A stretch of DNA of 64,000 nucleotides, taken from positions 2,070-66,069 of the forward strand of contig JALOBW010000004.1 in NCBI GenBank assembly GCA_023228085.1. Direction: 5' to 3'. The position numbers and the translations under genes were made by a program. The notes below the pieces were generated by a model. The model was not told the DNA's origin. It was given only the letters and a program-made list of their open reading frames with translations, and searched no databases. This document shows, one piece after another, positions 92-63,615 of this stretch (position 1 is the first letter of the stretch; every line of letters starts with the position of its first letter). This DNA comes from a bacterium (GTDB taxonomy: Bacteria > Patescibacteriota > Minisyncoccia > Minisyncoccales > Minisyncoccaceae).

Positions 92-442
92 ATGAATAAA
101 TTGAAAGCTACATATAGAAGTATATTCCCATTAGGAGTAATAGACCTGTTTAACTCAATATGGAACTGGAAAAGAAACAATATGTCATACAATGATTATC
201 TTAAAATACAGAAGGGAATATATTCATATAGTGAGCTGTGCAATGGAATAGAAATCAGGGGTAGCATTAAGGTTGATGCTATAAATAAAAATCCTGCAAT
301 GGATAAAATAGAGTCTAATTTCAAATCCCTGATTTCAGGATCATCTGAATTTTGGTATTGTGACATAATAACAATTATTGTTCTTGTTTATTATATGCAC
401 AAAGATTGCATATCTAAAATGATAAGGAGGATTAAAATATGA
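92..442 (+). CDS. hypothetical protein
   Basis: 116 aa ORF with AAGGAG RBS; ATGA overlap with the next gene. Confidence 0.7.
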   Translation: MNKLKATYRSIFPLGVIDLFNSIWNWKRNNMSYNDYLKIQKGIYSYSELCNGIEIRGSIKVDAINKNPAMDKIESNFKSLISGSSEFWYCDIITIIVLVYYMHKDCISKMIRRIKI

Positions 443-1668
443 CACTATCTAGTAATAAAATTAGGATCAAAAAAGAAACAAATGAATGCTATAAATGCAA
501 GTCAACCACATGTCTTCACTTAATAGACCAAAAATATAACATTTATATCTGTAATAGATGTAAATGTAGATATATTAAAAAATGTCATTTTTGCCAGAAG
601 GAAATAGTTCCAAGCCTATTAAGCCATATCTATTTAAATGATGATGTCGGTTCAGTATGTTGTATTCAATGTGCAGAGAAATATGTTTCAACTTGCAGCT
701 CTTGTGGGTGTCAATGTAAATCATCTAATGTGGAATATTGTGATAAGTGTAGAGCATTTTATTGCAAAGGAGATTGCTTTAATCATCATTATTGCAACGA
801 AACAATAAGGCACCATAGCTTTAAACCCATCCCCCTGTTCCACACTAGAAATGGGGCATTGATACGCCAAAATCAACTGAAAAGGGGTTTATTTATTGGA
901 ATAGAACTCGAAGTTGAATGTGGAGACGAGAGCGATAGAATAGCCAATCATTTAGTTAATATTTTCTCAAACAATGGAAATAATTTTTATTTAAAAGAAG
1001 ATGGATCACTTAATGATGGAGGATTTGAAATAGTTACACATCCAATGCATATAGAACGATTTATGTCTATGCCATGGGATGATATACTAAAATTCCTATC
1101 TAAAAGTGGTGCGTCATCCCATAGTCCATCAACCTGTGGGCTCCATGTTCACTTTAATAATAGCTATTATAGAAAACCATGCTCAAAAAGGAACCCGTCA
1201 AAGCAATTTGTTACTAACAGGATTAAGTTAGTTAATTTTTTCAATAAGAACTGGAAGGAATTGTCCATAATATCAAAAAGGGAAGAGTTCAATTATTGCC
1301 ATAAAAATCCCAAAATAAAGGACATAGTTTGCTTAAATGATCGTCAAGACACATGGGTAGAAGCTAAAAGAAATTGGTCTGACTATATCAATGGTCATTT
1401 ATCATGTGGAAGATATCAAGCAGTAAACACCGCTGGAGTCCATACAACAGAAATTAGGTTGTGGAGAGGAACCCTTAGCCCAATATCATTTAAGGGATTG
1501 ATACTACTAACGCATGCAATTATCAAGCAGTGCAAAAATGATAAAATTACAAAAACATCCACCATTAGAGATGTTATCAATAAAATGAAAAAAAGAGATC
1601 GGGATATAGTGTTGGAAATGATACAGTCTAGAGATAGACGCAATAAAACTTCAATCATAAATAGCTAA
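439..1668 (+). CDS. putative amidoligase (COOH-NH2 ligase type 2, Amidoligase_2-like) with N-terminal CxxC-rich region, copy A
   Basis: Motifs FIGIELEV, EDGSL, GFEIVTHP, TCGLHVHF, RYQAVN, TEIRLWRGTL; about 6 CxxC pairs in the N-terminal 120 aa. Confidence 0.85.
   Translation: MTLSSNKIRIKKETNECYKCKSTTCLHLIDQKYNIYICNRCKCRYIKKCHFCQKEIVPSLLSHIYLNDDVGSVCCIQCAEKYVSTCSSCGCQCKSSNVEYCDKCRAFYCKGDCFNHHYCNETIRHHSFKPIPLFHTRNGALIRQNQLKRGLFIGIELEVECGDESDRIANHLVNIFSNNGNNFYLKEDGSLNDGGFEIVTHPMHIERFMSMPWDDILKFLSKSGASSHSPSTCGLHVHFNNSYYRKPCSKRNPSKQFVTNRIKLVNFFNKNWKELSIISKREEFNYCHKNPKIKDIVCLNDRQDTWVEAKRNWSDYINGHLSCGRYQAVNTAGVHTTEIRLWRGTLSPISFKGLILLTHAIIKQCKNDKITKTSTIRDVINKMKKRDRDIVLEMIQSRDRRNKTSIINS
1021..1047 (+). 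repeat. 27-bp exact direct repeat, second copy at 3791-3817
   Basis: GGATTTGAAATAGTTACACATCCAATG (encodes GFEIVTHPM) in both ligases. Confidence 0.95.
1131..1160 (+). repeat. 30-bp exact direct repeat, second copy at 3901-3930
   Basis: AACCTGTGGGCTCCATGTTCACTTTAATAA (encodes TCGLHVHFN) in both ligases. Confidence 0.95.
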
Positions 1669-1670
1669 AT

Positions 1671-1721
1671 GAGGTGTAATATGTGTGTGATAATATACAA
1701 GCATAGCAAAGCAAAACTACC
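1671..1721 (+). repeat. 51-bp exact direct repeat, second copy at 4532-4582
   Basis: GAGGTGTAATATGTGTGTGATAATATACAAGCATAGCAAAGCAAAACTACC is identical in both copies; it covers the RBS and first codons of each amidotransferase. Confidence 0.95.
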
Positions 1722-2706
1722 TACTTCTGATATATTAACAGAAGCATCAAAAAGAAATCCTGATGGAATTGGAATTGCATATACCACAAATGGCAAAAAG
1801 AAAGTCATGATCGAAAAAGGGATATCACTTGACTACCTATTATCAATAAATAAAGAAGGTGAATATCTATCAAACCAATCAGTAATTTATCACTTCAGGA
1901 TAGCAACTAGTGGAGGTAAAGAAAAATCCCATTGTCATCCATTTCCACTATCTGAAAAATTGGATGACCTATCTTCAACTGAAGGCTTATTTAATACAGT
2001 CCTTGCTCACAATGGACGCATGTCTAGTTTTGAAAACAACAAAGAATATAGTGATTCTCAAATGTTTATACACAAAATAGTAAGCAAGTTAAGCTTCAAT
2101 GACCTTTCATCTATTAAAATAAGGAGACTATTTAAAGCTGCAACACAAGGCAGTAGATTCATATTTCTTAATAAAAATGGGAATATATGTAAATTTGGGC
2201 AATGGATAAAAGAGGGTGGTCTTTGGTATTCCAATGATACTTTAACTAAAAAGAAAACAACAAAACTTGTAACAGCATATCAATATGACTATCTAGACTA
2301 TGGTTGCTATAATGACTATGGATGTAGCTATAACTACAAGATAAGCAAGAATCATGATAATAAATCCATAGATACATCATGTCCCGATAATGAAGGCATC
2401 CCTAAATGCCACTCATATCTAAATTCTGGTGGAATATCATGTAAATACTGCATGTCAGTGCCGGCAACAATTTATTGTGATGATTTTTTTAACGTGAGCC
2501 TGTGCTATAAATGCTATCAAGAATTTAAATTAAACCAAGGCAATAAAGCTACCGACCATTGCTCTATGTGCAACAAAAGTGAAATTGACAATGGTGGAAA
2601 GCTATGGAATTATGTTTCTGGATTTGAAGACTGCTCACTATGTGATTCTTGCAAAGAAGAAGTGTTAAAAACATCAAATAGCAAAGGAGAAAATCATGCC
2701 AAATAG
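1681..2706 (+). CDS. class II (Ntn) glutamine amidotransferase with C-terminal CxxC-rich tail, copy A
   Basis: Start moved to ATG 1681 (GAGGTG RBS) so that Cys follows Met (MCVII). Motifs NPDGIG, HFRIATSG, CHPF, AHNG. Confidence 0.85.
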   Translation: MCVIIYKHSKAKLPTSDILTEASKRNPDGIGIAYTTNGKKKVMIEKGISLDYLLSINKEGEYLSNQSVIYHFRIATSGGKEKSHCHPFPLSEKLDDLSSTEGLFNTVLAHNGRMSSFENNKEYSDSQMFIHKIVSKLSFNDLSSIKIRRLFKAATQGSRFIFLNKNGNICKFGQWIKEGGLWYSNDTLTKKKTTKLVTAYQYDYLDYGCYNDYGCSYNYKISKNHDNKSIDTSCPDNEGIPKCHSYLNSGGISCKYCMSVPATIYCDDFFNVSLCYKCYQEFKLNQGNKATDHCSMCNKSEIDNGGKLWNYVSGFEDCSLCDSCKEEVLKTSNSKGENHAK

Positions 2707-4540
2707 AGAATACCTAACAAGAACAACAAGAAACATAATTGACAGCATGGCTGAAAATATTATGAATTCAAGCTTCCAAATAAGGGGAATCAATATGACA
2801 GATGAACCATGTGCCCCACGAATAGGAAGTGAGTCATGCTCTACTGTTACAGCAGAGACAATCGACCCAAGCAATAAAGCCAATCTAATAATTGGTTGCT
2901 ATGGATGTTCTTTTAATTGCCGGATATGCAATGGAGAGGTGGGAAGGAGAGATAGTAGCGTTGTCCTTACTCCTAGCTTATTAGATTTAAACAATGATTT
3001 AAGTATTAGTCGTAGTGATTTCGAAAGAAGCATTGTCGGCCCTAGAATATGCATTAAGTGTGCAAAGCAAATAGTGGATGGTGAACATTTTCATAGATGC
3101 CACGGTTGTGGATTATGGAGTTTTGAACCTCATGGAAAATATTTAGAAGGCTCCAATACCAGGAATAGTGTATGGGTTTGCAATAGCTGTTTAGAATGTT
3201 CTAAGTTTACATGTTCTCACTGTAATAGAACATTGTATTCAATAACAACAATGTCATGGAGATTATTTAACAATAATACAGTTTGTGACAGATGCAAGAA
3301 ACTTCATTATTTCATATGTAGTGACTGCCATAATGGGTTTCCAAATAATGAAGCATTAATAGATCCAGTTACTGGCGAGCATCTTTGCGGTAGTTGCTAT
3401 CCAAGTAGATTTGTTGTATGCACATTATGTGGCAGATCTGCTCACATTAGAACCACTATGAGCCTTGGAGATAGACTGCTATGTAGAGATTGTGTAAATA
3501 GTTCAAGGGGATATGAAGTTGAGCCAGTTAAACCATACAACTACAAGCCAAGCATATTCAATTTTTATACATATACAAGCAAAGATGTTAAAAATAATGA
3601 TGTGACTGGCTATGATCTATTTAACATCTCTAATGAAGAAGATAGCAAGAAGCTATATCTTGGGATAGAAGTAGAGATAGATGGGTTCAATTCAACTAGT
3701 GCAAAGGAAAGATGTGCCCTTGATATTCTGAAACAATTTTCCAACAAGGAAAAAATATTTTACATTAAACATGACGGATCTTTAAGATGTGGATTTGAAA
3801 TAGTTACACATCCAATGGAGCTACAAGCACTATTCCTTATTCCTTGGAATGAAATATTTAATATAGCAAAGTCTTACGGAGCCTATGCATTTAAAGAAAA
3901 AACCTGTGGGCTCCATGTTCACTTTAATAAGTCCTATTATGGATGTAATTTAAGTAAGCCAAGAACATCATCATACAATAAACCTTTTATGGAAAAAGCC
4001 TTGAGATTATTAGATTTTATCAATAAAAATTTTATGGAATTATCAAAAATTTCAAGGAGATGCAACAATAATTATAGGTGTATGCTTAAAGAAAGTGATT
4101 TGCCAATAGAAATAGATCAAGGCTACACTCATTGCATTAAAAATTGTGGCAAACCATGCTCCTTTAGATATTGCAGAAAGCAACATACTGTTAAAAATTT
4201 AATGAAAAGGATTAAAAAATATGGAGGTAGAAGACTTTACAATGTAGCAGATCTTTACAATGGTTCTATTATAGATAAATATTCAGCTTGCAATTTAACC
4301 AACTTCTCCACAATAGAGATCAGATTGTGGAGGGGAACATTGAATGTAGAAAGCTTCAAAAGTTTAATATTATTAACCTATCTAATAATACAACACGTCC
4401 ATGACACAAATAAATCAAAATCAATAAAAATTATTGATATTGTAGCACAGTCTAAACAACTACAGGATGATCAAAAAACCAAGTTGATTGGATTCATAGC
4501 TAAAAGAATATCAAGCAATTCTATAGCAGGAGAGGTGTAA
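2696..4540 (+). CDS. putative amidoligase (Amidoligase_2-like) with long CxxC array, copy B
   Basis: Motifs YLGIEVEI, HDGSL, GFEIVTHP, TCGLHVHF, KYSACN, TIEIRLWRGTL; about 11 CxxC pairs before the ligase domain. Confidence 0.85.
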   Translation: MPNREYLTRTTRNIIDSMAENIMNSSFQIRGINMTDEPCAPRIGSESCSTVTAETIDPSNKANLIIGCYGCSFNCRICNGEVGRRDSSVVLTPSLLDLNNDLSISRSDFERSIVGPRICIKCAKQIVDGEHFHRCHGCGLWSFEPHGKYLEGSNTRNSVWVCNSCLECSKFTCSHCNRTLYSITTMSWRLFNNNTVCDRCKKLHYFICSDCHNGFPNNEALIDPVTGEHLCGSCYPSRFVVCTLCGRSAHIRTTMSLGDRLLCRDCVNSSRGYEVEPVKPYNYKPSIFNFYTYTSKDVKNNDVTGYDLFNISNEEDSKKLYLGIEVEIDGFNSTSAKERCALDILKQFSNKEKIFYIKHDGSLRCGFEIVTHPMELQALFLIPWNEIFNIAKSYGAYAFKEKTCGLHVHFNKSYYGCNLSKPRTSSYNKPFMEKALRLLDFINKNFMELSKISRRCNNNYRCMLKESDLPIEIDQGYTHCIKNCGKPCSFRYCRKQHTVKNLMKRIKKYGGRRLYNVADLYNGSIIDKYSACNLTNFSTIEIRLWRGTLNVESFKSLILLTYLIIQHVHDTNKSKSIKIIDIVAQSKQLQDDQKTKLIGFIAKRISSNSIAGEV

Positions 4541-4541
4541 T

Positions 4542-5642
4542 ATGTGTGTGATAATATACAAGCATAGCAAAGCAAAACTACCAGATAGAGATAAATTGAG
4601 ACTAGCGGCATCCGAAAATCCAGATGGAGTAGGATTGGCATATACACATAACAATAAGGTAATTATTAAAAAGGGAATTAACCTTAAGCAGTTATTTGAC
4701 ATGGAAAGTTTATTATCAGATAAGACTGTAATTTATCACTTTAGAATAGCGACTAGTGGAATTAAAACTAGCAAGAACCAATGCCATCCATTTCCACTAT
4801 CTGGCAATTTTGAAGATCTTGAAAAATTAGAGACATCATGCAATACAGCAATAGCACACAATGGGCATTTAATTGGATATTACAGTGATAGGTACTCAGA
4901 TACCCAAGTGTTTATTAAGACAGTATTGAATGGTTTTGTATTTAACGACATATACTATAATCAAAAAATAAAATTACTATTTGAATCTACAATAGATGGA
5001 GATAGATTTATATTTATGAACAAGGATGGTAGGATAGTTAAATTCGGAACATGGTTTAAACATGAAGGAATTTGGTATTCCAACAATTCCATGTTTAAAT
5101 ATAACTACAAGACTACTGTTATTAAGAGTTCCCACAACGAAAATGTTAATAATTACATACATCATAGATCATGCGCTACATGTGGAACTGAACTTCATGC
5201 AGCAGATGGAGTTGCATTTAGTTCAATTATCAATGACCATGTTTGCTTACACTGCAATAGCATACTCATTAAAATGCAGAGAGCCAAGACAAATGATATT
5301 AAAGTATATCAATGTGAATCTTGTAAGAAGTATAAAAAAGATGTATATAGAGAGCCTAAATCTGGAAGTATGATGTGCATGGACTGCTGGTCATCTTATA
5401 ATGTTGCTCATGGCTCAAAGGTTGAATCAACTGGAAGTTGTGGGATATGTAATCATGAATTTCAAGTTCTTTACTACAATTCGCTGGTTAAAAAAATGAT
5501 ATGCTTAACTTGCTGGATAAATAAGGATATAATAAAAGGTCAAATGCTTAAAAATGAAATAGCAACAAAATCAAATGAAAAAGGCAAGGAGGATTGTGAA
5601 TGTCTAAAAGAAGATCAGCTCACTATAGTATCAGCAGATTAA
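4542..5642 (+). CDS. class II (Ntn) glutamine amidotransferase with C-terminal CxxC-rich tail, copy B
   Basis: MCVII start; motifs NPDGVG, HFRIATSG, CHPF, AHNG; about 6 CxxC pairs in the tail. Confidence 0.85.
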   Translation: MCVIIYKHSKAKLPDRDKLRLAASENPDGVGLAYTHNNKVIIKKGINLKQLFDMESLLSDKTVIYHFRIATSGIKTSKNQCHPFPLSGNFEDLEKLETSCNTAIAHNGHLIGYYSDRYSDTQVFIKTVLNGFVFNDIYYNQKIKLLFESTIDGDRFIFMNKDGRIVKFGTWFKHEGIWYSNNSMFKYNYKTTVIKSSHNENVNNYIHHRSCATCGTELHAADGVAFSSIINDHVCLHCNSILIKMQRAKTNDIKVYQCESCKKYKKDVYREPKSGSMMCMDCWSSYNVAHGSKVESTGSCGICNHEFQVLYYNSLVKKMICLTCWINKDIIKGQMLKNEIATKSNEKGKEDCECLKEDQLTIVSAD

Positions 5643-10278: not shown

Positions 10279-11412
10279 ATGACTAATAAAACCAATAAAG
10301 CACTCATAGTAGCAGATTTACATTTATCCCATAAACATAGGTTTCCAAATCCCCAAATGAGGCTACGGAGGGACATCCAGGCTGTCAATAACTTATGTAG
10401 AGAGGTAGTAAGGTTAAATTGTAATTCCCTTATTATTGCAGGAGACTTTTTTGATACTTATAATCCAAGCATAGAATTACTAAATAGTATAATAGGAGAA
10501 ATGCAAACATTAGCAACTGACAATGATGTTAGAATTTACTTTATAAGAGGAAATGGAATACATGAAGGAGCTAAAGATAGGTGGAGCAACCCATTACTAA
10601 CCCTTGCATCTGCAATAGACAATGCCTTATTTATAGATTGTGGATATCATATAGAGCCATCTATTGATGACATTATAATGATACCACACTGTGAATCATC
10701 AGATGAGTTTCTGTCTAATTTAGATTCTGCAATAATAAATAGAAATGCTAGTGATAAGTATAGTAACCACAAAGATCAGTGCTACATAATATGCCACCAA
10801 TGGTTTGATACACTATTTAGATTTGATTCACCTGATACTATTAGGTGTGATGACATATTAAAAATAACAAACAAAAGAGAAGATGTTAAATTTAGGTTTA
10901 TATCTGGGCATCAACACAAAAGCGTATCGGTATATTACAATGACAATATATCTATTGCTAGCATAGGAATCCCAATTCAACAGAACTTTGGAGACCCATT
11001 GGATACAAATGCAATATTGTTAGAAAGTTTCACAGGAAAACTAGATTATCATTGGAACAAAATAGAGCTTTCAGACATTAAGTTTAAAAAGATAAAAGCA
11101 TCTAATATGGAAGAATTTGAAAGATTTACAGACCCAGATGCTAAAAAGCACCTGTATAGCATAGACATCCAATGTGAAGAGGATGAAAAGTTATTCAAAG
11201 CAATGTCTGAAGAGGGTTATTTTATTGAACCAAACTTCATGAAGCCAGAAAATGTACCTGGTAAAATAGAAAGAGAGGAGATTAAATTGGATAGTGACAT
11301 TGAATCCATATTAAGTGAAACTGTTGATGAGTTAAGCGGAGAGCCAGAAGAGGTTAGGAAAGAAATTATAGCCATAGGCATGGAATTAACAAAAGAACCT
11401 TGCCCATTTTAA
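10279..11412 (+). CDS. sbcD: Mre11/SbcD-like metallophosphoesterase nuclease
   Basis: ADLH, AGDFFD, GNGIHE, CHQ, SGHQH, QQNFGD; lies near the Rad50-like ATPase. Confidence 0.8.
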   Translation: MTNKTNKALIVADLHLSHKHRFPNPQMRLRRDIQAVNNLCREVVRLNCNSLIIAGDFFDTYNPSIELLNSIIGEMQTLATDNDVRIYFIRGNGIHEGAKDRWSNPLLTLASAIDNALFIDCGYHIEPSIDDIIMIPHCESSDEFLSNLDSAIINRNASDKYSNHKDQCYIICHQWFDTLFRFDSPDTIRCDDILKITNKREDVKFRFISGHQHKSVSVYYNDNISIASIGIPIQQNFGDPLDTNAILLESFTGKLDYHWNKIELSDIKFKKIKASNMEEFERFTDPDAKKHLYSIDIQCEEDEKLFKAMSEEGYFIEPNFMKPENVPGKIEREEIKLDSDIESILSETVDELSGEPEEVRKEIIAIGMELTKEPCPF

Positions 11413-11425
11413 GGAGAAATATATT

Positions 11426-12454
11426 ATGAGAAAATTAGCAAGTATTCAAAGGATAGAGCAAGTAATTCCAATAGAAGGAGCAGATAATATAGAATCAGTA
11501 AGGGTTCTTGGCTGGGTCTGTGTTGTGAAGAAGGGCGAATTTGAGCCTGGCAATCTATGTATTTACATTGAAATAGATTCAGTGCTGCCCAACATCCCAC
11601 AATTTGAGTTCTTTAAAAAATATGCAAAGGACAGGCGAGTAAAAACCATTAAATTGCGTAAGATAATTTCTCAAGGACTATGTTTACCAGTAGGAGAATA
11701 TTTGCCTTCAGAATATAATGGCATTCAAGTAGGAGATGATGTTACTAGTATTTTTGGCATTGAAAAATATGAGCCACCTGCTGAAATCAGGGGAGCTGGA
11801 TATGATAAAATGATGGCATTCCCAATAGTAATACCAAAGCCAGATGAAACAAGGATACAAACAATACCCCACATATTAGAACAATTCAAAGGAACCCCAT
11901 GTTATATAACAGAGAAAATAGATGGGACTTCAGTTACATTTTTTAAATATGAAGGTGAAATAGGAGTGTGCTCAAAGAATGTAAGGTATCAACTTGATGC
12001 TTCCAATGTATATACTGCCATGTTTAAAAAACATGATTTAGAAGAAAAACTAAAATCAAGCTATGACAATATTGCAATACAGGGAGAAATAGTTGGTCAA
12101 AAAATACAGAGCAATAAATACAAATTCCCAGATCAAAAGCTATTTATATACTCAATATATGACATTAAAAGCCAAAGATACTATTCTTGGGATTTAATGA
12201 ATAGGGTATGCACTGAGCTTGGATTAAAATGTGTTCCCTATTTATTGGGCATAGATTTATCTGGAGGAGTTGATGATTTTGTGGGATACTCAAAAGGCAA
12301 ATCTGTATTAAATCCAGAAGTGCACAGAGAAGGCATTGTAATAAGAGCAAGAGGTGCAATAGATTTAGATCTCAAGACTATGAGCGAGCTTGGGTATAAT
12401 AGGTTCTCGTTTAAAGTTATAAATCCTGATTTTCTTATAAAATACGGAGAATGA
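11426..12454 (+). CDS. RNA ligase (Rnl2-like nucleotidyltransferase, DRB0094-type)
   Basis: N-terminal MRKLASIQRI..IEGADNIE domain; motifs TEKIDGTS, QGEIVG, EGIVIR, FKVINPDF. Confidence 0.9.
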   Translation: MRKLASIQRIEQVIPIEGADNIESVRVLGWVCVVKKGEFEPGNLCIYIEIDSVLPNIPQFEFFKKYAKDRRVKTIKLRKIISQGLCLPVGEYLPSEYNGIQVGDDVTSIFGIEKYEPPAEIRGAGYDKMMAFPIVIPKPDETRIQTIPHILEQFKGTPCYITEKIDGTSVTFFKYEGEIGVCSKNVRYQLDASNVYTAMFKKHDLEEKLKSSYDNIAIQGEIVGQKIQSNKYKFPDQKLFIYSIYDIKSQRYYSWDLMNRVCTELGLKCVPYLLGIDLSGGVDDFVGYSKGKSVLNPEVHREGIVIRARGAIDLDLKTMSELGYNRFSFKVINPDFLIKYGE

Positions 12455-12455
12455 A

Positions 12456-14288
12456 ATGAAACTAAAAACAGTTAGAATTAAAGATTTTATGACAATACAT
12501 AAAGCAACGGTTGAGCTTGACAATCAGGGCATTGTGTTGCTTCTTGGGGAGAATAGAGATGATAAGTTTGCTACATCTAACCTATCTGGTAAGTCAACAA
12601 TATTTGAAGCTATCTGCTGGGGGCTATATGGCAAGACCTATAGGGGTATTAAGGGCAAAGAAGTAATAAGAGATGGATGCAGTGGATGTAAGGTTGAAGT
12701 AGAACTTGAAGACTCTACATTTATAAATAGAGAAAGGACTGAAAATAAGGAATATCTAAGTACGATGTATCCAATAGAATTTGGCTCTGTTCCAAATGAT
12801 ACTGCATTGACCCAGGAGTCCCTAAATGAAAAACTTGGTATGGACTTTAACACATTTACAAGTTTTGTATATTTTGGAGATGATACTGCAAATAAAAACA
12901 TAACCCTATTTGGAGAAGCTACTAATAGTGAAAAATTTAAAACCTTAAAGGCATTTCTAAATTTTGACCTTTGGGATACTGGATATGCTAATGCTAAAAG
13001 TGAACTAGATAAGCTGGAAAACTCTATTAGGAAGATAGCAACTGAAAAAATAGAACTTAATAACAAGAATAAAGTAATAGAAGCTAAAATGGAATCTCTT
13101 TCAGAACACCTCAAAAGCCTATGGGAATCTTTACATAGCTTGTCAAATCCTGAAAACCAAGACGACTTAAACTTAGAAATGGGAATGAAAGACTTGTCAG
13201 ATAAAGAATTGGATTTGTTAGCTAAGAAAAAAGCTCTTATAGAGTCCAAGGTCAACATTGCTAACCAAAGATCTTCTCTTATGCTTAAAAAGAGCAAGGT
13301 TGAAGCTGAAAATGGATCAATAAATGCTAATATATTAAGGATATCTGATAAAATTAGAGATCTTGAATCTGCCCAATCTACAAAAATATGCCCATTTTGC
13401 AAACAGGAAATTAAAGAAGATACGGAGTGGACAAACTGCTACACAAAGATTGAAGAATTGGAAAAAGAAATCCAATATTTAAGTGCTAATATGCTTGCCA
13501 ATAAAGATGCTATTGAAGCATTGAAGATTGAAGTTGCCCAGTTGGGAGATAAAGAGAGCGAAGTTTGGAGGCTAATATGTGAAGTTGATGATGAGATGAA
13601 AGAAATATCATCAAAGATGGGAATGATAAAACAAAAAGAAAAATCTAAAGCAGAAAGAGAAACATCTATAAAAAGGTATGGCAATGAAATTGGAAAAACA
13701 GAAGAATCGTTAGAGAACATGGAAAAGGCAATAAAGTCTAATAGTGAAATGATAAAGCTGTTAGATGAATCTGTTATTGAAATTGAGCATAAATGCAGAA
13801 TATTAAGATTCTGGGTAAAGCAGGGATTTAAAGAAGGAGGAGCAAAAAATGTCGAGTTACGTAGAATTATCCCATTCATCAACAACCACATTAAGTCTTA
13901 CGTTTCGTCAATATTGTCATCAGATTATCCCATTACTCTTTCTCCTTGCAGGGAGCTTAAAAGTGGCAATATTAAAAATGAAATATCAGTCGAAATGTCA
14001 GGAAATTATCAGCGTAAGTCTAGAAGTGAAAGAAGAAGAATTGATATTATTATCAATATGGCATTGTCTATGCTCCATCCAAAATTTTGCAATGTTATCT
14101 TATGTGATGAATTGTTTAGTGCAATGGATGAAAAGGGGATGGAGATAATAATTAGATTCTTTAAATCTCTTATTGAGATGGGCAAAGTTTCAAGTGTATT
14201 CTTGGCAAGCCCATATGACATGGATATAGATGTTGATAATAGAATAACTGTAATAAAAGAAAATGGCATGAGCCATGTAAAGGAGTAA
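12456..14288 (+). CDS. sbcC: Rad50/SbcC-like ABC ATPase
   Basis: Walker A SNLSGKST, long coiled coil, zinc hook CPFC, Walker B ILCDE, D-loop LFSAMD. Confidence 0.85.
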   Translation: MKLKTVRIKDFMTIHKATVELDNQGIVLLLGENRDDKFATSNLSGKSTIFEAICWGLYGKTYRGIKGKEVIRDGCSGCKVEVELEDSTFINRERTENKEYLSTMYPIEFGSVPNDTALTQESLNEKLGMDFNTFTSFVYFGDDTANKNITLFGEATNSEKFKTLKAFLNFDLWDTGYANAKSELDKLENSIRKIATEKIELNNKNKVIEAKMESLSEHLKSLWESLHSLSNPENQDDLNLEMGMKDLSDKELDLLAKKKALIESKVNIANQRSSLMLKKSKVEAENGSINANILRISDKIRDLESAQSTKICPFCKQEIKEDTEWTNCYTKIEELEKEIQYLSANMLANKDAIEALKIEVAQLGDKESEVWRLICEVDDEMKEISSKMGMIKQKEKSKAERETSIKRYGNEIGKTEESLENMEKAIKSNSEMIKLLDESVIEIEHKCRILRFWVKQGFKEGGAKNVELRRIIPFINNHIKSYVSSILSSDYPITLSPCRELKSGNIKNEISVEMSGNYQRKSRSERRRIDIIINMALSMLHPKFCNVILCDELFSAMDEKGMEIIIRFFKSLIEMGKVSSVFLASPYDMDIDVDNRITVIKENGMSHVKE

Positions 14289-27161: not shown

Positions 27162-28844
27162 ATGGGAAATTGCTCTATTAAGATCAATCAATCAGATAAC
27201 CCACTATCCTATATTAAATTCAATCTCAAAGAAATGAAAAGGAAGTTAAGGATCTGTCTATTGCAACCAGGTGGCTGTGGGGATTCTATAATGGTAGAGC
27301 CCATTGCAAGGTGGATTAAAGACAATAATGATAATACTGAAATAGCATTTGCTGCCAGGCCTGAATACATGAAGGTAATGATGAATAATCCATATTTTAA
27401 GGTTATTGATGGATTTGAAATATTAAAGGCAATTAAAAATCATGATAGTGGGATATTGAACCAATTTGACATTCCTCCCATTAACTTTGCTACTGCAATA
27501 AATACTAATCCAGATGCAGAGAAAATGCACTACATAGATGCTCATTATAAATATATAGACCAAGATATTGACACTAACTCCATACCAATAGAATACAAAA
27601 TTCCAAGATTGTTTATAAAAGAAGATAGGGCTAAGTTAGCAAAAAGCTGGTTTAATGTTATGGAATTAAGAGATAGAATAACTGTTGGAATACAAATAAG
27701 ATCTAGTAGTTATGTAAGGAATTGGAATAAAAATAAAGAGCTTGCATTACTATTAGGTAGCAATGGATACAATGTAATATTATTCTCAAACAACCCTTAT
27801 GACTTTTTTAGTGGTCCAAACATATATACTCCGCCATTCAAATATACTCACCAGCAAATGGAGAATGTTGTAGCATTTGCAAATGAATGTGACATATTGG
27901 TTAGCCCAGACAGTAGCTTTGTTCAAATAGCACAGGCATTAAATAAGAAATTAGTATGCATGTATGGACCATTCCCAAGCGAATATAGAGTTAAATACTA
28001 TGATAATGTAATAGCCATAGAGAACCATGATCATGAAAAATTTAAATGTATGCCATGTTATCTTCATCATCATACGTGCCCATTTGGATCAACTTCTCCA
28101 TGTATGGACTCTATAAGTGTTGATGATGTATTTGATGCAATAGTTAAAAAGTCGCATGAATATGGCATGGATACAGGTAAACTAGTAAACACTGAATTCT
28201 ATAGTGAAAAAATATACAGTTCAATTAAATGTATAGATGGCAACAATTTTGCAATAATGTCTCCAAATTATGGAGTATGGACTTGTGAGAATGCTCAAGA
28301 AATAGCAAATAGAATTAAAACCCATACACAGGGTGCTTATCCAAATATGTCACAGTTCTGCATAGCAGACATGGGATGCGGAGATGGAGCGCTTATGGAT
28401 GCAATATCTAAATGCTCAAGAGATAAATTTTATCCGCTTCTGTATGGGATAGATATTATGGATTCTGCAAAACATCAAGCTAGGGTCAACCATCATGATA
28501 TATGGAGCAATATTAAGAAGGCAGACATTAGAGAAAGATTTATTTGGTCCAATGGCAAATTAAACTGTATTATCTACAATGAAATACTTGAGCACATGGA
28601 TATATATGGTGCAATAGAAGCAATTAAAACTGGCAAATCATACTTGCATAACAAGGGAATAATGTATATATTATATAGTATGGAACATGCAAAGTTTGAC
28701 ATGCATAAAGTTTTTGGAATGATAGGAATGGAGATTGTATCCAATAGCATGATAGACAATAAAACAGAACTAATAGCAAGGAAAATACAGAATGAGACAA
28801 ATACGAGCAATATCCAACAAAGTAATAGCAAAGAGAACCAATAG
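27162..28844 (+). CDS. GT9-family (GT-B) glycosyltransferase fused to a class I SAM methyltransferase
   Basis: GGCGDSIM, VSPDSSFVQIAQAL...MYGP, CMPC..C...CMDSI; C-terminal IADMGCGDG. Confidence 0.8.
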   Translation: MGNCSIKINQSDNPLSYIKFNLKEMKRKLRICLLQPGGCGDSIMVEPIARWIKDNNDNTEIAFAARPEYMKVMMNNPYFKVIDGFEILKAIKNHDSGILNQFDIPPINFATAINTNPDAEKMHYIDAHYKYIDQDIDTNSIPIEYKIPRLFIKEDRAKLAKSWFNVMELRDRITVGIQIRSSSYVRNWNKNKELALLLGSNGYNVILFSNNPYDFFSGPNIYTPPFKYTHQQMENVVAFANECDILVSPDSSFVQIAQALNKKLVCMYGPFPSEYRVKYYDNVIAIENHDHEKFKCMPCYLHHHTCPFGSTSPCMDSISVDDVFDAIVKKSHEYGMDTGKLVNTEFYSEKIYSSIKCIDGNNFAIMSPNYGVWTCENAQEIANRIKTHTQGAYPNMSQFCIADMGCGDGALMDAISKCSRDKFYPLLYGIDIMDSAKHQARVNHHDIWSNIKKADIRERFIWSNGKLNCIIYNEILEHMDIYGAIEAIKTGKSYLHNKGIMYILYSMEHAKFDMHKVFGMIGMEIVSNSMIDNKTELIARKIQNETNTSNIQQSNSKENQ

Positions 28845-29067
28845 ACTCATTGAAGAGCATCATGGCATAGCAATACCACAGACTGCAAAAGTTATTTCTG
28901 TAGTGTGTGAGGTATTGTCTGTTGGGCCAAGGGTTAGAAGTGGCATAAAAGTTGGAGACATGATATTTAAAGATCAGTATTTAAGACCAGATACTGAATT
29001 TGAAGTTGATGGTCAAAAGCTACTTTTATTAAATGAAGATGAAATTCATTGTAAGGTAGAAGAATAA
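28792..29067 (+). CDS. groES: GroES/Cpn10-like co-chaperonin
   Basis: IRAISNKVIAK...GIAIP...EVLSVGP...IKVGD...EFEVDGQKLLLLNEDEI. Confidence 0.8.
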   Translation: MRQIRAISNKVIAKRTNRLIEEHHGIAIPQTAKVISVVCEVLSVGPRVRSGIKVGDMIFKDQYLRPDTEFEVDGQKLLLLNEDEIHCKVEE

Positions 29068-29640
29068 TTGACTGTATTATCTAGACAGGGTCTTCCTCAA
29101 ACCACTTCTTTAAATGTAAAGAAATGGAAAGTTAAAAGCAGTGGAATGACTAAAGCTACTGCTAAATTTAAGGGTGCCATAAACGTAGATTTAGAGTGGA
29201 AATTAAAATTGGATGCTGACAAGTTTTGTAGGGAATATATGGCAAAGTGTATAGAAGAGGGCATGGGTAAAATAGGGAAAGACATAAAAGATAGAGCTTA
29301 CATGCAGGCCGGTGGAGAAAGAATATACATTGGTGGAATGACAAAATGGCAAAGAATAAAAGCATATTATGCAGCAACTAAACTTTCTCCTCCTGAAAGA
29401 GTTAGAATTGAAACTGGGCTATACAAAAATAACTTCACCCATAAAATTCAATCTACTCATGAAAACTTAAAAACATCACTAACTATTGGCAATCAATACA
29501 AACATGCAGCCTATGTAGAATCAAAAACAGGCAATTTAACTGCTGCAATGCTTTCATTGTGGGTATCCATTTTATACCAAATAGGACTATCTCTAGGCAA
29601 AGCAATGACAACATGGGAATCAAGTAGTAATACTCAATAA
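29068..29640 (+). CDS. neck/tail completion protein (HK97 gp10-like, probable)
   Basis: RIETGLYKNNF...TIGNQYKHAAYVE pattern. Confidence 0.5.
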   Translation: MTVLSRQGLPQTTSLNVKKWKVKSSGMTKATAKFKGAINVDLEWKLKLDADKFCREYMAKCIEEGMGKIGKDIKDRAYMQAGGERIYIGGMTKWQRIKAYYAATKLSPPERVRIETGLYKNNFTHKIQSTHENLKTSLTIGNQYKHAAYVESKTGNLTAAMLSLWVSILYQIGLSLGKAMTTWESSSNTQ

Positions 29641-29655
29641 ATATAAGGAACCAAT

Positions 29656-30033
29656 ATGATGGTAAAACCAATAAAATACAATCCAAATGAATTAGCAATA
29701 TTTATAGACATCAATGATAAAAGTGACTACAGGGGAGCTGCCAACTTTGCTAGGGCAAAATATTGTATAAACATGCACCCAATGTCTTTTAGAATATTCT
29801 ATATAATGGATGAACTGTCTAATGGTAAAATAAAAGAAATTAACTCCTATTTGTTAAATATGAATGGCAAATTTAGAGGGTCGCTAATAAGATCTTGTGA
29901 AGTTGAAGAAATAGCCAATAAGTATAGGAATAAAGTTGCCATAAGTGGATCTGCAATTATAGGCAAGACATCCAATGACAATGATTTACCAAAGATCATA
30001 GGACCATCTGATGAAAAAAAGATCACAGGATAA
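29656..30033 (+). CDS. hypothetical protein
   Basis: AAGGA RBS; 125 aa. Confidence 0.65.
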   Translation: MMVKPIKYNPNELAIFIDINDKSDYRGAANFARAKYCINMHPMSFRIFYIMDELSNGKIKEINSYLLNMNGKFRGSLIRSCEVEEIANKYRNKVAISGSAIIGKTSNDNDLPKIIGPSDEKKITG

Positions 30034-30059
30034 ATCTAGAAGATATCACTACAGAAACA

Positions 30060-32153
30060 ATGAATTTTGGCAAGAAAAATAAAGCAGAAGTTACTATTTC
30101 TATTTTGTGTTTTAATAGGCTAAATGCAACCAAAGATTGTGTTAATAGCATATTGCAATCTAAAACCAAATATGACTACAACATTATCCTTACTGACAAT
30201 GGAAGCTATGACAAGGCAAATAAAGACTTTCTAATTGAAACTTACAAGAATAATGAGAATATTGCACTACTATTGCACAATGGCAACATGGGATTTATAG
30301 ATGGCCACAGAAAGGCATTGGAAATAGCAACTGGAAAATACTTTCTATTACTAAACAATGATATCATTGTATATGATGGATGGTTAGATGATTTAGTAGA
30401 TAAAATTAAAAAAGATAAAAATGCAAAAGCAGTAGGAGTACACCCATGCAAGCTTGATAATAATGGCGTTGGAGGCATAGTATCTAAAACAGACTTTGAC
30501 TATGTGGAAGGTGACTGCCTAATGGTAGAGACTGAATTTATAAAAGAATTTGGTCTATTTTCTCCAAAACTATACTTTATATATTATGAAGATTCAGATT
30601 TATGTTTAAGGCTAAAAGAACATAACTATGGAGTAGCTTATTGTGATACCAACAAAATAGTCCACATTCCAATGGTCAAAGCAATAAATACAAGTAAGGA
30701 TAAAACAAGGCATGTTCATGACAACCAAGAATATTTCAAAAAGAGATGGGGATACTATCTAAAACATAAAACATTTAAAAATGCTAAATATATTATCAAG
30801 AGAAAACATGCGATAGGAGACACCTTATATACTCTACCTATTGCAAAGACATTAAAGGAATTAAATCCTTCTTGTAATATACTACTAGAGACAGATTGCC
30901 CTCAAATAGCAAAAATAATTCCCTATATAGATTCAACAATAGACACTGGGAGCATTAGCTATGATGGATATAATGTATTAGACTGTGATTTTGCACATGA
31001 AAATAACCCAATGACTCCTATATATGAAGCCTTTTGGAAAAGCATTGGCATAAAAGTAAATAGCATAACTCCAGATATCCCAATAAACAATGATGTTAAT
31101 GCTAAATTAAAAGATAAATACAACTTCCCATACATAATAGCTCACTGGGGTCCATCATTTGGATGGGATGGAAGGAATGTTGACAAGGAAACTATTGACT
31201 GTATAAGTAAGCTAATTAAAAATGAAGGTCTAAAGATAATAGAAGTTGGAACTTCAAAGAATTCTAAATACTCTGACTATGTATTGTTGAATCAAGAGTG
31301 GGATGTTGATATAGAACTTGTAAGGAATAGTGCTGGGTTTATAGGAATAGATAGTAGTATTATGCATATTGCTCAAGCACTAGGAACAAAGGGATCTGCC
31401 ATATTTGGATGTGTAGATCCAAAAACAAGGCTAACTGAAAATAGTTCTATTATTGAATATACGGCAGATGCAGTATGTAAATTCTGTTGGAATAAATCTG
31501 AACCACCAAAGACATTTATACAATGCAGAAGGGGAGACAATATTTGCATTAAAAATATAAATCCAATCCAATTTGCAGGAATAGCAGTAAAACATATAAC
31601 CGGCAAAAAGATGAGCAAATTGTTTATAAACAAAAATAATATTAAACTTGAGAACTTAAAAGTAGATTGGGGATGTGGGTTTAGAAAGGAAAAAGGGTAT
31701 GTTGGAATCGACATACAAGATTATGACAATGTTGATATTGTTTGTGATGTTATGGACGTTGATAAACAGAAGCTTCCCAAAGGGTCATGCATAGAAATAA
31801 GGTCATTGCACTTTATAGAGCATCATACATATAAAAATGTAATAAAAATACTAAAGGAATGGAAAGAATTGTTGGCTAATGAAGGAGTTGTTAGAATATT
31901 CTTCCCAGACATGTCTATGCTATCAAGAAAAACCAATGATGCAAGAATGCTAGACTTTTCATTAGGCCAATGGCAAAATCAATATGATGTCCATAAGAGT
32001 TGGTGGACACAGGATTTAATGGTTAAATTTCTTGAAGAAGTAGGATTTAAAAATGTAAAAGCAATACCATATACTGGGCCTTTGCATACAGTTACTAATA
32101 TGGTAAATAGAAAAGAAATATGCTGCACTTCGGGAGTGGAAGGAGAAAAATAA
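30060..32153 (+). CDS. three-domain protein: GT2 glycosyltransferase + GT9 glycosyltransferase + SAM methyltransferase
   Basis: GT2: LTDNGSYD, LLNND, YEDSDLCLR. GT9: AIGDTL, FIGIDSSIMHIAQALG. MTase: VDWGCG, HFIEH. Confidence 0.85.
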   Translation: MNFGKKNKAEVTISILCFNRLNATKDCVNSILQSKTKYDYNIILTDNGSYDKANKDFLIETYKNNENIALLLHNGNMGFIDGHRKALEIATGKYFLLLNNDIIVYDGWLDDLVDKIKKDKNAKAVGVHPCKLDNNGVGGIVSKTDFDYVEGDCLMVETEFIKEFGLFSPKLYFIYYEDSDLCLRLKEHNYGVAYCDTNKIVHIPMVKAINTSKDKTRHVHDNQEYFKKRWGYYLKHKTFKNAKYIIKRKHAIGDTLYTLPIAKTLKELNPSCNILLETDCPQIAKIIPYIDSTIDTGSISYDGYNVLDCDFAHENNPMTPIYEAFWKSIGIKVNSITPDIPINNDVNAKLKDKYNFPYIIAHWGPSFGWDGRNVDKETIDCISKLIKNEGLKIIEVGTSKNSKYSDYVLLNQEWDVDIELVRNSAGFIGIDSSIMHIAQALGTKGSAIFGCVDPKTRLTENSSIIEYTADAVCKFCWNKSEPPKTFIQCRRGDNICIKNINPIQFAGIAVKHITGKKMSKLFINKNNIKLENLKVDWGCGFRKEKGYVGIDIQDYDNVDIVCDVMDVDKQKLPKGSCIEIRSLHFIEHHTYKNVIKILKEWKELLANEGVVRIFFPDMSMLSRKTNDARMLDFSLGQWQNQYDVHKSWWTQDLMVKFLEEVGFKNVKAIPYTGPLHTVTNMVNRKEICCTSGVEGEK

Positions 32154-32848
32154 TGACAAGTATTGATTTTTATCAACCAGCCTATTCCCCAAATGGGGAG
32201 TTCTTAAAGAAAGTTTGCCCATTCTTCTACCATTTTTGGTGTGATTCTTTGTGGCACAATGCAGTTCCAAAAGATACTGCTGGGCTATCTTATTTAGACA
32301 TAGGATGTGCTGATGGACTATATCTACTTAGGTTTATGCAAAGAGGTGGCAAATCAGCCTGCGGAGTTGATCCAAAAATTAAGGCTAGTGGATTTGAATA
32401 TTTAAAAGAACTATATAATCCCATTCAATATATTGGAATAGAAGGATGTGTTAATAAGGAAGGAAATATAATACCAGATGTTGAACCAGCAAATATAGTA
32501 AATTGCATGAACATGATTGAATACACTGACGATCCATATAAATGCTTAGAAACCCTGTTAAACAAAACAATAGATAGGCTAATAGTAACTGTAGATATGG
32601 GGCCAAAGACAGGATATTCAAATAAACTTAATCAATGGTTATTTAATAAAAATGAATTTGTAAGCAAAATACCTTATCCATTTATAGTGTGGGAAGAGAA
32701 TGATTTAACATATCCTCAAATAGCATGTGTAGTTGTTAATAAAACAAATGCAATACAGCCTATGCCCCCTGGGGCAATACATTGTTCAACGGATATTACT
32801 GAAACTCAAAAGTATTACCTTGAATCAATCGAAGTAGGAAATAAATAA
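32153..32848 (+). CDS. class I SAM-dependent methyltransferase
   Basis: YLDIGCADG, GVD, NMIEYTDDP; start at ATG 32153 overlapping the upstream stop. Confidence 0.75.
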   Translation: MTSIDFYQPAYSPNGEFLKKVCPFFYHFWCDSLWHNAVPKDTAGLSYLDIGCADGLYLLRFMQRGGKSACGVDPKIKASGFEYLKELYNPIQYIGIEGCVNKEGNIIPDVEPANIVNCMNMIEYTDDPYKCLETLLNKTIDRLIVTVDMGPKTGYSNKLNQWLFNKNEFVSKIPYPFIVWEENDLTYPQIACVVVNKTNAIQPMPPGAIHCSTDITETQKYYLESIEVGNK

Positions 32849-33615
32849 TGCTACCAGAACAATGCCAATTTATAGTTCTTGCTGGAGTAAATAAATGTGG
32901 AACTTCATCTTTGGCTTATGCACTAAAAAAACATCCAAATATATATCTAGCAAATGGTAAAGAGCCAGCATTCTTTGTAGAGGATAGGTTTTTTGATTCA
33001 CAGGGCAAGGTCAATGAAGTTGACTTAAGTAATTACCATTTCTATGTATATAAGTTCTTTGAGAGTGTAACACATTACCTTGATGCTTCTACGATATATT
33101 CTGGATTCCCAAAATGTATGAAGAGGATAATGGAATATAGATCAGATGCTAAAATAGTTATTGTATTTAGAAATCCAATAAATAGAGCATATTCTGCATG
33201 GTGGCATTTTGCAAGTGACGGGAAATCAGAAAAACATTCATTCCATGATGCAATAATTAACGAAGCAAAGTACTGTATGGAAGCAAAAGACTTAGGATAT
33301 TCCCTCAGATCTTATGTATCAAGAGGATTTTATTCCAATACCATAAGGATGATTTGGAGATACTTTGATAAATCACAAGTATTGCCAATAAAATTTGAGA
33401 GCATGGTTGCAAACAAACAAGAAACTTTAAATAGTATATTTAACTTTATAGGAGTAGAGCAGGTAGAATTAGAATTTGGGCATAAGTTGAAAAGTGCCTA
33501 TCCTTGCCCGATGAGCGATGAAGACAAGGAATATTTAAAATATGTTTATGAATACTCAATAAAAGATTTAGAAAGAATGTTGAGTTGGGACTGTAGTGAT
33601 TGGCTATCAACTTAA
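32848..33615 (+). CDS. PAPS-dependent sulfotransferase
   Basis: 5'-PSB loop GVNKCGTSSL, KEPAFF, 3'-PB FRNPINRAYSAW, SRGFY. Confidence 0.9.
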   Translation: MLPEQCQFIVLAGVNKCGTSSLAYALKKHPNIYLANGKEPAFFVEDRFFDSQGKVNEVDLSNYHFYVYKFFESVTHYLDASTIYSGFPKCMKRIMEYRSDAKIVIVFRNPINRAYSAWWHFASDGKSEKHSFHDAIINEAKYCMEAKDLGYSLRSYVSRGFYSNTIRMIWRYFDKSQVLPIKFESMVANKQETLNSIFNFIGVEQVELEFGHKLKSAYPCPMSDEDKEYLKYVYEYSIKDLERMLSWDCSDWLST

Positions 33616-33630
33616 TATCAAGAGAGGTCA

Positions 33631-34269
33631 TTGAAGATGATAACGGAAAAGCTATTAAGATGTTCTATTAAATCAGCAGAATTAGAGCAATCAAGAATCA
33701 ACGAAAAAGTAATGGGAATAGGAGGATTTACTTCTAACAAAGTAAGGCATTTTTTGAACAATATCTGTGGTGTACTACCATTCCACTATCTAGAAGTTGG
33801 AACCCATCATGGCTCAACAATAATAGCAGCTTCATTTAGGAATCATGGTAAATATACAGGAATAGATGATTTTTCACAGTTTCAGGGAAGGGAGAAGGTC
33901 CTCTTTGATAACATAAATCAATTTAATGGACTATGCAATATTAAATTTATCAATGGGAACTCTTTTAGTAAAGAAGTTATTGACCAAATAGACAATAATA
34001 GCATAGAAGTATATTTCTATGATGGAGACCATTCCTATGAATCGCAATATAAAGCACTTGTTGATTATATTGGTAAGATGAATAAAAAGTTCTGCTTTAT
34101 AGTTGATGACTGGAATTGGGAAGGCCCAAGAAATGGAACCAATGATGCTATTAGCTTCCTTGAATTAAAAACAGTATATAAAGAAGAGTTATTTACCCCA
34201 AATTATGAAAATGGAAGGGCAGATAGCTGGTGGAACGGACTGGGAATATTTATATTGGAGAGACAATAG
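33631..34269 (+). CDS. class I SAM methyltransferase (Methyltransf_24-like)
   Basis: YLEVGTHHGST, FYDGDHSYE, IVDDWNW. Confidence 0.85.
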   Translation: MKMITEKLLRCSIKSAELEQSRINEKVMGIGGFTSNKVRHFLNNICGVLPFHYLEVGTHHGSTIIAASFRNHGKYTGIDDFSQFQGREKVLFDNINQFNGLCNIKFINGNSFSKEVIDQIDNNSIEVYFYDGDHSYESQYKALVDYIGKMNKKFCFIVDDWNWEGPRNGTNDAISFLELKTVYKEELFTPNYENGRADSWWNGLGIFILERQ

Positions 34270-59214: not shown

Positions 59215-59249
59215 TGGATATGCAACGTGACTACACGAAAGGAGTAAAA

Positions 59250-60932: not shown

Positions 60933-60936
60933 AAAG

Positions 60937-61203: not shown

Positions 61204-61207
61204 CATA

Positions 61208-63553: not shown

Positions 63554-63615
63554 CTTGATAATACTGGACTTGACAAAGCATACATTATAGATGCTTGATA
63601 ATACTGGACTTGACA
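63554..63615 (+). repeat. 22-bp direct repeat x2 (40-bp period) with a palindromic spacer
   Basis: CTTGATAATACTGGACTTGACA at 63554-63575 and 63594-63615. Confidence 0.9.

Follow-up and report, generated by a model that had tools for sequence, protein, structure and literature searches.

The locus described here raises two questions: what a carboxylate-amine ligase and a glutaminase do side by side, and why one phage should hold more than one set of them. It occupies positions 439-5642 of a 64,000-nucleotide stretch of contig JALOBW010000004.1 (the window), an AT-rich (33% GC) tailed-phage sequence with nearly all of its genes on one strand, and consists of two tandem pairs, each a ligase of the Amidoligase_2 family followed by a class II glutamine amidohydrolase of the N-terminal nucleophile (Ntn) type. 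A third pair lies in the 4,701 bp through which the end of the window joins its start in the parent genome, a circular contig of 68,701 bp from a landfill metagenome. We tentatively favour, at somewhat less than even chances, a reading in which each pair is a two-subunit enzyme that amidates a carboxylate with glutamine and adenosine triphosphate (ATP), with a different, probably protein, target for each pair.

The association of Amidoligase_2 with class II glutamine amidotransferases (GATases) in phages is attributed to Iyer et al. 2009 in the passages of later papers that touch upon it (PMC10580990; PMC11706807; PMC11318856). It has been noted in LUZ24-like phages (tf, UFV-P2), in Mycobacterium phage Marvin (gp105/gp106), in OM43 phages and in Poseidoniales viruses, and the roles speculated for it in such passages are cell-wall modification, superinfection exclusion and secondary metabolites. 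The literature agrees with the original prediction, made from the letters of the window, that the pairing is known in phages and its substrate unknown; our literature search found no paper testing the function of such a pair. The Klebsiella “amidoligase” CfmP was set aside as irrelevant, being an ATP-grasp enzyme.

Three ligase-glutaminase pairs with intact active sites

The four genes of the block, all on the + strand, stand in the originally predicted order of ligase A, GATase A, ligase B and GATase B. The first, ligA (439..1668, 409 aa), joins an N-terminal LIM-like zinc-finger array (487..798; about three CxxC...CxxC units, aa 17-120) to a predicted glutamine synthetase (GS)-like carboxylate-amine ligase core (841..1665) with the motifs GIELEVE, EDGSL, GFEIVTHP, CGLHVH and TTEIRLWRGT. 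It is followed by gatA (1681..2706, 341 aa), a class II (Ntn, Cys1) glutamine amidohydrolase ending in C-terminal zinc ribbons. In ligB (2696..4540, 614 aa) a long array of some 5-6 units (aa 68-266; 12 CxxC motifs in the protein) precedes an Amidoligase_2 core at aa ~300-614, and gatB (4542..5642, 366 aa) comprises an Ntn glutamine amidohydrolase (aa 1-181) with three zinc ribbons (aa 211-324). The original description recognised the catalytic domains correctly but overlooked the Cys-rich zinc-finger extensions on all of these proteins.

Packing within the block is tight. The ligA-gatA junction measures 12 nt and contains a GAGGTG Shine-Dalgarno sequence, gatA and ligB overlap by 11 nt, and 1 nt separates ligB from gatB; these junctions are compatible with translational coupling of the four genes, which had been claimed outright. 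The open reading frame (ORF) of gatA can begin at ATG 1669 (345 aa) or ATG 1681 (341 aa). The latter (M-C-V-I-I-Y) is the probable start and ATG 1669 probably not, because the ribosome-binding context is the same as that of gatB, the public gene call is 341 aa and Ntn enzymes require Met-Cys; ahead of both genes alike stands GAGGTG-N5-ATG-TGT, i.e. GAGGTGTAAT-ATG-TGT.

The third pair, ligC and gatC, is found at L001 5767-7988, within the stretch omitted from the window, so that the phage has three pairs and not two; the count of two originally given holds for the window but not for the genome. The 490-aa ligC has an acidic five-finger array and scores 27.4 bits against Amidoligase_2 (cutoff 22), its stop codon overlaps the start of gatC, and gatC (249 aa) begins MCIIIYK. 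Together the three pairs cover roughly an eighth of the genome.

Hidden Markov models (HMMs) bear out the Amidoligase_2 (PF12224) call for the ligases of the block, with 25.5 bits for ligA and 25.4 bits for ligB against the same cutoff, and the ligases belong to phrog_16683 of PHROGs (function unknown; ligA match 1e-32). A phmmer search of PDB sequences with ligA gave no match. Its AlphaFold2 (AF2) model, with a predicted local distance difference test (pLDDT) of 85, has YbdK, glutamine synthetase, GshF, PafA and Dop as its best Foldseek matches, at a probability of about 1.0 and with whole-chain TM-scores of only 0.3-0.4, PafA and Dop matching more weakly than YbdK and GS; on this model the fold is that of a GS-like carboxylate-amine ligase. 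Fifteen residues are invariant across 60 ligase homologs (G154, E156, E158, D188, S190, G195, E197, P202, C233, G234, H236, H238, R281, E338 and R340), and all of them are kept in ligA, ligB and ligC. Among these, E156, E158, D188, E197, H236, H238, R281, E338 and R340 would be equivalent to the metal, ATP and acyl-phosphate residues of GS.

For the Ntn partners, Pfam supports the original GATase call in gatA, which barely passes the GATase_4 cutoff (23.2 bits against 23), and not in gatB, which has no Pfam hit but is 51% identical to gatA across the first 190 aa and scores 227 bits against the Ntn family HMM; gatC reaches 15.0 bits. The proteins belong to phrog_25883 (PHROGs, function unknown). 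PDB sequences gave gatB chance matches only (phmmer; SET8 and cytochromes). Its AF2 model (pLDDT >90 over aa 1-190) matches the GlmS glutaminase domain 1xff (E 6e-6), GFAT1, EgtC (E 7e-4) and PurF in Foldseek, and by this model the N-terminal domain has the Ntn αββα glutaminase fold. By sequence, the nearest solved relatives of the Ntn profile are PurF (E 5e-7) and GFAT, its HFRIATsG / aHNG / SDT segments aligning with HVRYATAG / AHNG / SDTE of B. subtilis PurF.

Invariant across 38 Ntn homologs are M1, C2, N26, G29, K44, H66, F67, R68, G73, P83, F84, N107, G108, S119, D120, S180 and N181, the first two also in a separate set of 57 homologs, and all are kept in gatA (read from 1681), gatB and gatC. 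We take R68, N107-G108 and D120 to be the glutamine-binding Arg, the oxyanion Asn-Gly and the α-amino-binding Asp of class II amidotransferases. The motifs singled out by the original prediction in the ligases (GxExE, DGSL, CGLHVH, TxEIRLWRGT) and in the Ntn proteins (Met-Cys1, HFRIAT, HNG) are all present and match invariant columns of the 60 and 38 homologs respectively. A loss of catalytic residues was looked for in each pair and found in none, and these alignments give no sign that any of the six proteins is inactivated.

Zinc-finger arrays, divergence and copy number

All three ligases carry N-terminal CxxC...CxxC arrays and all three Ntn proteins C-terminal zinc-ribbon units, of which gatB has three, gatA two or three (CxxC motifs spanning aa 254-321) and gatC one. 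In ligA the CxxC motifs stand at aa 17, 38, 49, 75, 86 and 101. At least four CxxC motifs lie upstream of the core in 108 of the 120 ligase homologs with a recognisable core, and the array cysteines are in register across 60 homologs. The C-terminal extension has no CxxC in 79 of 119 Ntn relatives, whereas gatA and gatB are unusually CxxC-rich, with 5-6 motifs each.

Searched against PDB sequences, the ligase profile matches LIM-domain proteins solely (PINCH1, E 1e-4), and tandem LIM domains are weak Foldseek matches of the ligA model. Pfam LIM gives no hit in the proteins of the three pairs, while 2 of 120 listed relatives have one. The fingers follow the pattern CxxC-x10-22-CxxC with linkers of ~4-14 residues and do not conform to the canonical spacing CX2CX16-23[HC]X2[CH]X2CX2CX16-21CX2[CHD], and because of this the arrays are named LIM-like, not LIM. 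Eukaryotic tandem LIM proteins (PINCH, LMO4, LHX3/4) have the same paired CxxC knuckle fingers in tandem, but their canonical linker is 2 residues long and that of the phage arrays irregular. LIM domains are protein-binding modules, and the LIM-like arrays suggest a protein as the target. The net charge of the N-terminal extension is -25 in ligC, +1 in ligB and +9 in ligA (aa 1-133), the family median for the array being -23 and ligA the most basic of the sample; arrays as strongly acidic as those of the family argue against nucleic-acid binding.

The lengths of the ligase N-terminal and partner C-terminal extensions correlate weakly (rho 0.26, p 0.04) and give no evidence of docking. A Tyr/Asp/Asn-rich low-complexity linker follows the catalytic domain in many Ntn partners (P0137, P0154, P0157, P0195 and others), e.g. 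NYNYDYNYNYNYDYGGYYN, and gatA has a short version of it (YQYDYLDYGCYNDYGCSYNYK); this linker might serve the LIM-like array as a docking peptide.

The Ntn cores of the three pairs are mutual best matches at 47-51% identity, with at most 41% to anything else, and the ligase cores are mutual best or near-best at 32-34% (ligA-ligB 34%). These mutual matches of both cores point to a triplication of the whole unit long ago within this lineage. When the same pairs of genomes were compared across 73 cognate pairs, 94% of 2,449 comparisons showed higher conservation in the Ntn core than in the ligase core, with median core identities of 35% and 28%; a comparison of HMM-score spread was discarded in favour of these identities, the loci having been selected by Ntn similarity. 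A uniform Ntn core beside a variable ligase fits a fixed small substrate, glutamine, and variable ligase targets. The suggestion in the original prediction that the pairs may have different targets gains support from how strongly the ligase cores, and the charges of their arrays, have diverged.

Copy number among relatives was counted with ligase and Ntn HMMs, each derived from 121 proteins. The count covered 80 IMG/VR loci reached via the Ntn profile, with ±10 kb of flank each, and 24 metagenome contig loci of at least 7 kb retrieved via a six-sequence alignment (A4); sampling took the 80 best of 295 and of 219 relatives, with flanks limited to 10 kb. One ligase directly precedes one Ntn gene in 63 of the 80 IMG/VR loci. 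In two further loci 1.4-3.3 kb separates the single ligase from the single Ntn gene, seven have a ligase, an Ntn gene and a long ligase (830-874 aa), seven have, by the HMMs, an Ntn gene alone, one (L050) has two pairs, and there is no locus with three. The metagenome loci have one ligase and one Ntn gene in 22 of 24 cases and two pairs in none (0/24). Combined, 85 of 104 informative loci have one ligase standing directly ahead of one Ntn gene; two pairs occur in one locus and three in none. The pair is near-universal and multiple full pairs are rare, so that tandem double pairs are not routine in related phages, a point on which the original prediction had turned.

Five of the loci scored as an Ntn gene alone share an ORF family upstream of that gene, whose representative in L073 reaches 23.8 bits against Amidoligase_2, above the cutoff, and is very divergent; HMMs derived from near relatives therefore miss some ligases. 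In L073, L074 and similar loci this divergent Amidoligase_2 protein is without zinc fingers and lies directly upstream of the Ntn gene. Locus L003, found via the nearest ligA homolog, reads COOH-NH2_lig, Ntn, ligase, Ntn, GNAT. An alternative layout recurs in L005, L006, L010-L014, L017 and L034 (phages of ~65-70 kb), where a short ligase (~310-340 aa) and one Ntn gene are joined by a very long ligase (830-874 aa) with a ~600-aa uncharacterised N-terminal region; an SNF2 helicase adjoins the group, with terminase and portal genes facing it.

The Ntn partner alone accounts for 5,888 clusters at 50% identity, and the viruses that carry the pair include crAss-like, Pseudomonas, mycobacterial, marine and giant ones. 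Near the pair, the 80 loci revealed no further gene conserved as a partner, so that the pair looks self-sufficient. The phage module elsewhere has the same families, in the same order of ligase and Ntn gene and in the same phage setting, but as one pair, against three diverged pairs here, and with acidic arrays, against the basic array of ligA. The module is already known but uncharacterised, and its triplication with divergent, targeting-like arrays is a rare variant.

Candidate chemistry of the pairs

As an ATP- and glutamine-dependent two-subunit amidotransferase, each pair would work as follows. The GS-like ligase would activate a carboxylate as acyl-phosphate, by analogy with characterised members of the fold most likely a glutamate γ-carboxyl and probably one on a macromolecule. 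The Ntn partner would hydrolyse free L-glutamine via its N-terminal Cys1 and pass the ammonia to the ligase, a supply that is plausible, and the carboxylate would end as a carboxamide. The LIM-like array of the ligase would pick the target, most probably a protein; the zinc ribbons of the Ntn protein may aid targeting or subunit docking, and the three anciently duplicated pairs would have been retained because each acts on a different target. The pairs are probably expressed early: they head the long + strand gene series as its first large genes, after a repeat-rich non-coding gap of ~1.1 kb, and this location right after a regulatory gap suggests early expression. Support for such an enzyme comes from the intact glutamine site, from PurF and GFAT as nearest relatives and from the occurrence of about one ligase to one Ntn gene, tightly adjacent. 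It comes further from the lack of a conserved third gene near the pair in the 80 loci and from the slow evolution of the Ntn subunit beside the fast one of the ligase.

The closest working analogy for this mechanism is MurT/GatD, the lipid II isoglutaminyl synthase, in which two co-transcribed genes encode a two-subunit enzyme that amidates glutamate with ATP and glutamine via an acyl-phosphate (PMC3267633). The folds differ: MurT is built like a Mur ligase and GatD belongs to the class I (triad) GATases, against the GS-like and class II Ntn proteins here, and the sequence similarity of MurT/GatD to the phage proteins is limited to a weak zinc-ribbon match. PurF, GlmS/GFAT and AsnB, on the other hand, share with the phage Ntn protein the fold, Cys1 and the Arg, Asn-Gly and Asp site, but their glutaminase is fused to the synthase domain and the phage Ntn is a separate protein. 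The GS-like fold of the presumed phage synthase is not known to accept channelled ammonia.

Several points weigh against this mechanism. Channel-forming amidotransferases are often fused, and no ligase-Ntn fusion was found in 379 fetched proteins or ~160 loci, the cross-hits of the search being solely Ntn C-terminal zinc ribbons against the last ligase finger. In the literature searched, no amidotransferase made of a GS-like ligase and a class II GATase has been demonstrated. The best Pfam model of the Ntn protein, GATase_4, is of the stand-alone YafJ/EgtC type, EgtC itself is among the structural matches, in some phages a single Ntn gene comes with two ligases, and the glutamine-binding residues would also bind the glutamyl part of a γ-glutamyl-X. 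Amidoligases of Firmicutes prophages, moreover, adjoin a γ-glutamyl cyclotransferase, which is unable to supply ammonia (PMC11318856). The more specific claim that the module is a new protein-modifying writer, amidating host or phage proteins at specific carboxylates (Glu, Asp or C-terminal) under the guidance of its LIM-like array, with three writers for three targets in early infection, we regard as rather doubtful.

The main rival, with EgtA/EgtC, PuuA/PuuD and PafA/Dop as precedents, is a γ-glutamyl (or other acyl) write-erase or protect-deprotect system, in which the ligase adds the γ-carboxyl of glutamate to a target amine and the Ntn hydrolase removes the γ-glutamyl group. It is unlikely, though to be taken seriously: EgtC is just such a stand-alone class II Ntn hydrolase, and GATase_4 as best Pfam model, the missing fusions and the cyclotransferase beside the prophage amidoligases all agree with it. 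To our knowledge every characterised GS-fold ligase activates the glutamate γ-carboxyl, and the partner in the Pfam text for PF12224 is reported to be either a “GAT-like thiol peptidase” or a cyclotransferase of the Aig2 kind. EgtA/EgtC (ergothioneine) and PuuA/PuuD (putrescine use) likewise combine a GS-superfamily ligase with a GATase-like hydrolase acting on γ-glutamyl amides, but they have enzymes between ligation and hydrolysis and no zinc-finger arrays, and for the phage pair no such intermediate-step enzyme recurs in the 80 loci or appears in the Pfam lists of this genome. Furthermore, a writer and eraser so tightly co-expressed would run a futile cycle, an Ntn core far more uniform than the ligase is unexpected if it recognises a variable X group, and the nearest solved relatives of the sequence profile are PurF and GFAT, not EgtC. 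Synthesis or modification of a small molecule or envelope precursor, such as amidation of the peptidoglycan stem peptide or of a peptide-like metabolite, with the three ligases serving different small substrates or successive steps, is quite improbable. In the relaying passages of the three papers cited at the outset it is the suggestion of Iyer et al. 2009 for phiEco32 and Marvin; other phages group COOH-NH2_lig, Amidoligase_2, ATP-grasp and GNAT genes round one GATase in what resembles a biosynthetic cluster, and MurT/GatD and AsnB-type enzymes show that glutamine-dependent peptidoglycan amidation exists (PMC3267633). Multi-finger LIM-like arrays in register would, however, be an odd accessory for a small-molecule enzyme, and each ligase has its own Ntn partner, none being shared. 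Transporter, lipid-carrier and cell-wall families were absent both from the six neighbour proteins scanned (the 116-aa ORF ahead of ligA, the three ORFs that follow gatB, and two that flank pair C, of 128 aa and 274 aa) and from the precomputed Pfam lists for the region. Nothing specific was found for the envelope-remodelling or anti-defence role suggested in the original prediction: the recurrent neighbours of the pair in the 80 loci are helicase, terminase and portal genes, and no PADLOC model for known anti-phage defence hits any of the six proteins.

Three further explanations carry still less weight. A pupylation-like tagging, in which the Ntn protein deamidates a terminal Gln in the role of Dop and the ligase conjugates the γ-carboxylate to lysine in that of PafA, is very unlikely. 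PafA and Dop are indeed among the structural matches of the ligase, with a GS-like fold that modifies proteins via a glutamate γ-carboxylate, and mycobacterial Dop (deamidase) and PafA (ligase) are encoded in one gene region. Their similarity to the phage ligase is nevertheless very low and weaker than that of YbdK and GS, the ligase partner is an Ntn protein and not a Dop paralog, the phage is without a Pup-like tag gene, and no small tag-like ORF ending in Gln/Glu stands beside the pairs. In addition, the Ntn family invariably keeps the Asp for binding glutamine by its free α-amino group, which argues for a free amino acid as substrate and not a protein terminus. Hypermodification of a nucleic-acid base, in which a modified base of phage DNA or host tRNA that bears a carboxyl group would be amidated or aminoacylated, we consider very improbable too. 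Lee et al. 2021 count amidoligase and amidotransferase genes with the uncharacterised neighbours of thymidine-hypermodification genes, and in viral contigs they co-occur with 5-HMUDK and aGPT-Pplase2 clusters (PMC8989533). The array of ligA is basic, and this genome has ThyX, three DNA methyltransferases and an RNA ligase. The family arrays are strongly acidic, though, and the recurrent neighbours are not nucleotide-modification genes. The whole-genome precomputed Pfam lists show ThyX and methyltransferases only and none of 5-HMUDK, aGPT-Pplase, dUMP hydroxymethylase or TET/JBP, nor any other kinase, pyrophosphorylase or hydroxymethylase family, although very divergent versions could escape; because of this, DNA hypermodification is unlikely here. 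Least credible is that the pairs are functionally redundant duplicates kept for dosage, with no separate targets. They are mutually closest and identical in architecture, but they have diverged deeply (to 32-34% identity in the ligase and 47-51% in the Ntn cores), all six proteins retain their catalytic residues, the arrays differ in length and charge, and the rarity of multi-copy arrangements elsewhere speaks against a general dosage pressure.

Genomic setting and wider meaning

Ahead of ligA lies a 116-aa ORF (92..442, + strand) with no recognisable family, whose stop overlaps the ligA start (ATGA) and which shares a transcription unit with it. Around the third pair, 94-aa and 128-aa ORFs stand upstream of ligC, and ORFs of 274, 86/99 and 67 aa downstream of gatC, followed by the first ORF of the window; the 274-aa protein has no family and a C-terminus of ...KGE. 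The non-coding gap preceding this series (window 63554-63615 and 63962-64000, continuing at L001 4823-4911) contains exact 22-nt direct repeats (CTTGATAATACTGGACTTGACA, two copies, 40 nt apart), three TGTCCTGAAATTGAACA-like 17-mers and one 19-nt inverted repeat, which are probably promoter, operator or origin elements; a promoter scan was uninformative, with 86 sites against 81 expected.

Megablast of the region found no near relatives among GenBank phages, and exact-word searches with gatB and the UvsX-like protein found no close ones in IMG/VR. Elsewhere the window encodes a UvsX-like recombinase, SbcCD, an RNA ligase, terminase, portal and a tape-measure protein. The RNA ligase (PHA02142 OB-fold + RNA_ligase, 11426-12454) sits between an SbcD-like phosphoesterase (10279-11412) and SbcC (12456-14288), an unusual location for an RNA-repair enzyme. 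Within the structural module, a sugar-modification cluster (27162-34269) comprises a Glyco_transf_9 + Methyltransf_23 fusion (560 aa), a Cpn10/GroES gene (~28792-29067), Glycos_transf_2 (697 aa), Methyltransf_23, a sulfotransferase and Methyltransf_24; through it virion proteins could be glycosylated, methylated or sulfated, or a host surface polysaccharide modified. A further group, of DNA-modification and nucleotide genes, at 57536-62201 holds a TSCPD-domain protein, an MT-A70 methyltransferase, a CxxCxxCC protein, an N6_N4 methyltransferase and ThyX, with a second N6_N4 methyltransferase on the minus strand.

Amidoligase_2 with an Ntn-GATase is among the commoner phage gene modules of no known function, predicted in 2009. 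With three co-resident pairs, conserved glutaminase cores and divergent ligase cores and arrays, this genome is a natural experiment, and its three matched enzyme sets could serve to address cognate specificity, array-based target choice and the alternative of amidation or γ-glutamylation. If protein carboxylate amidation proves true, it would be a new enzymatic post-translational modification in host takeover, the reverse of deamidation.

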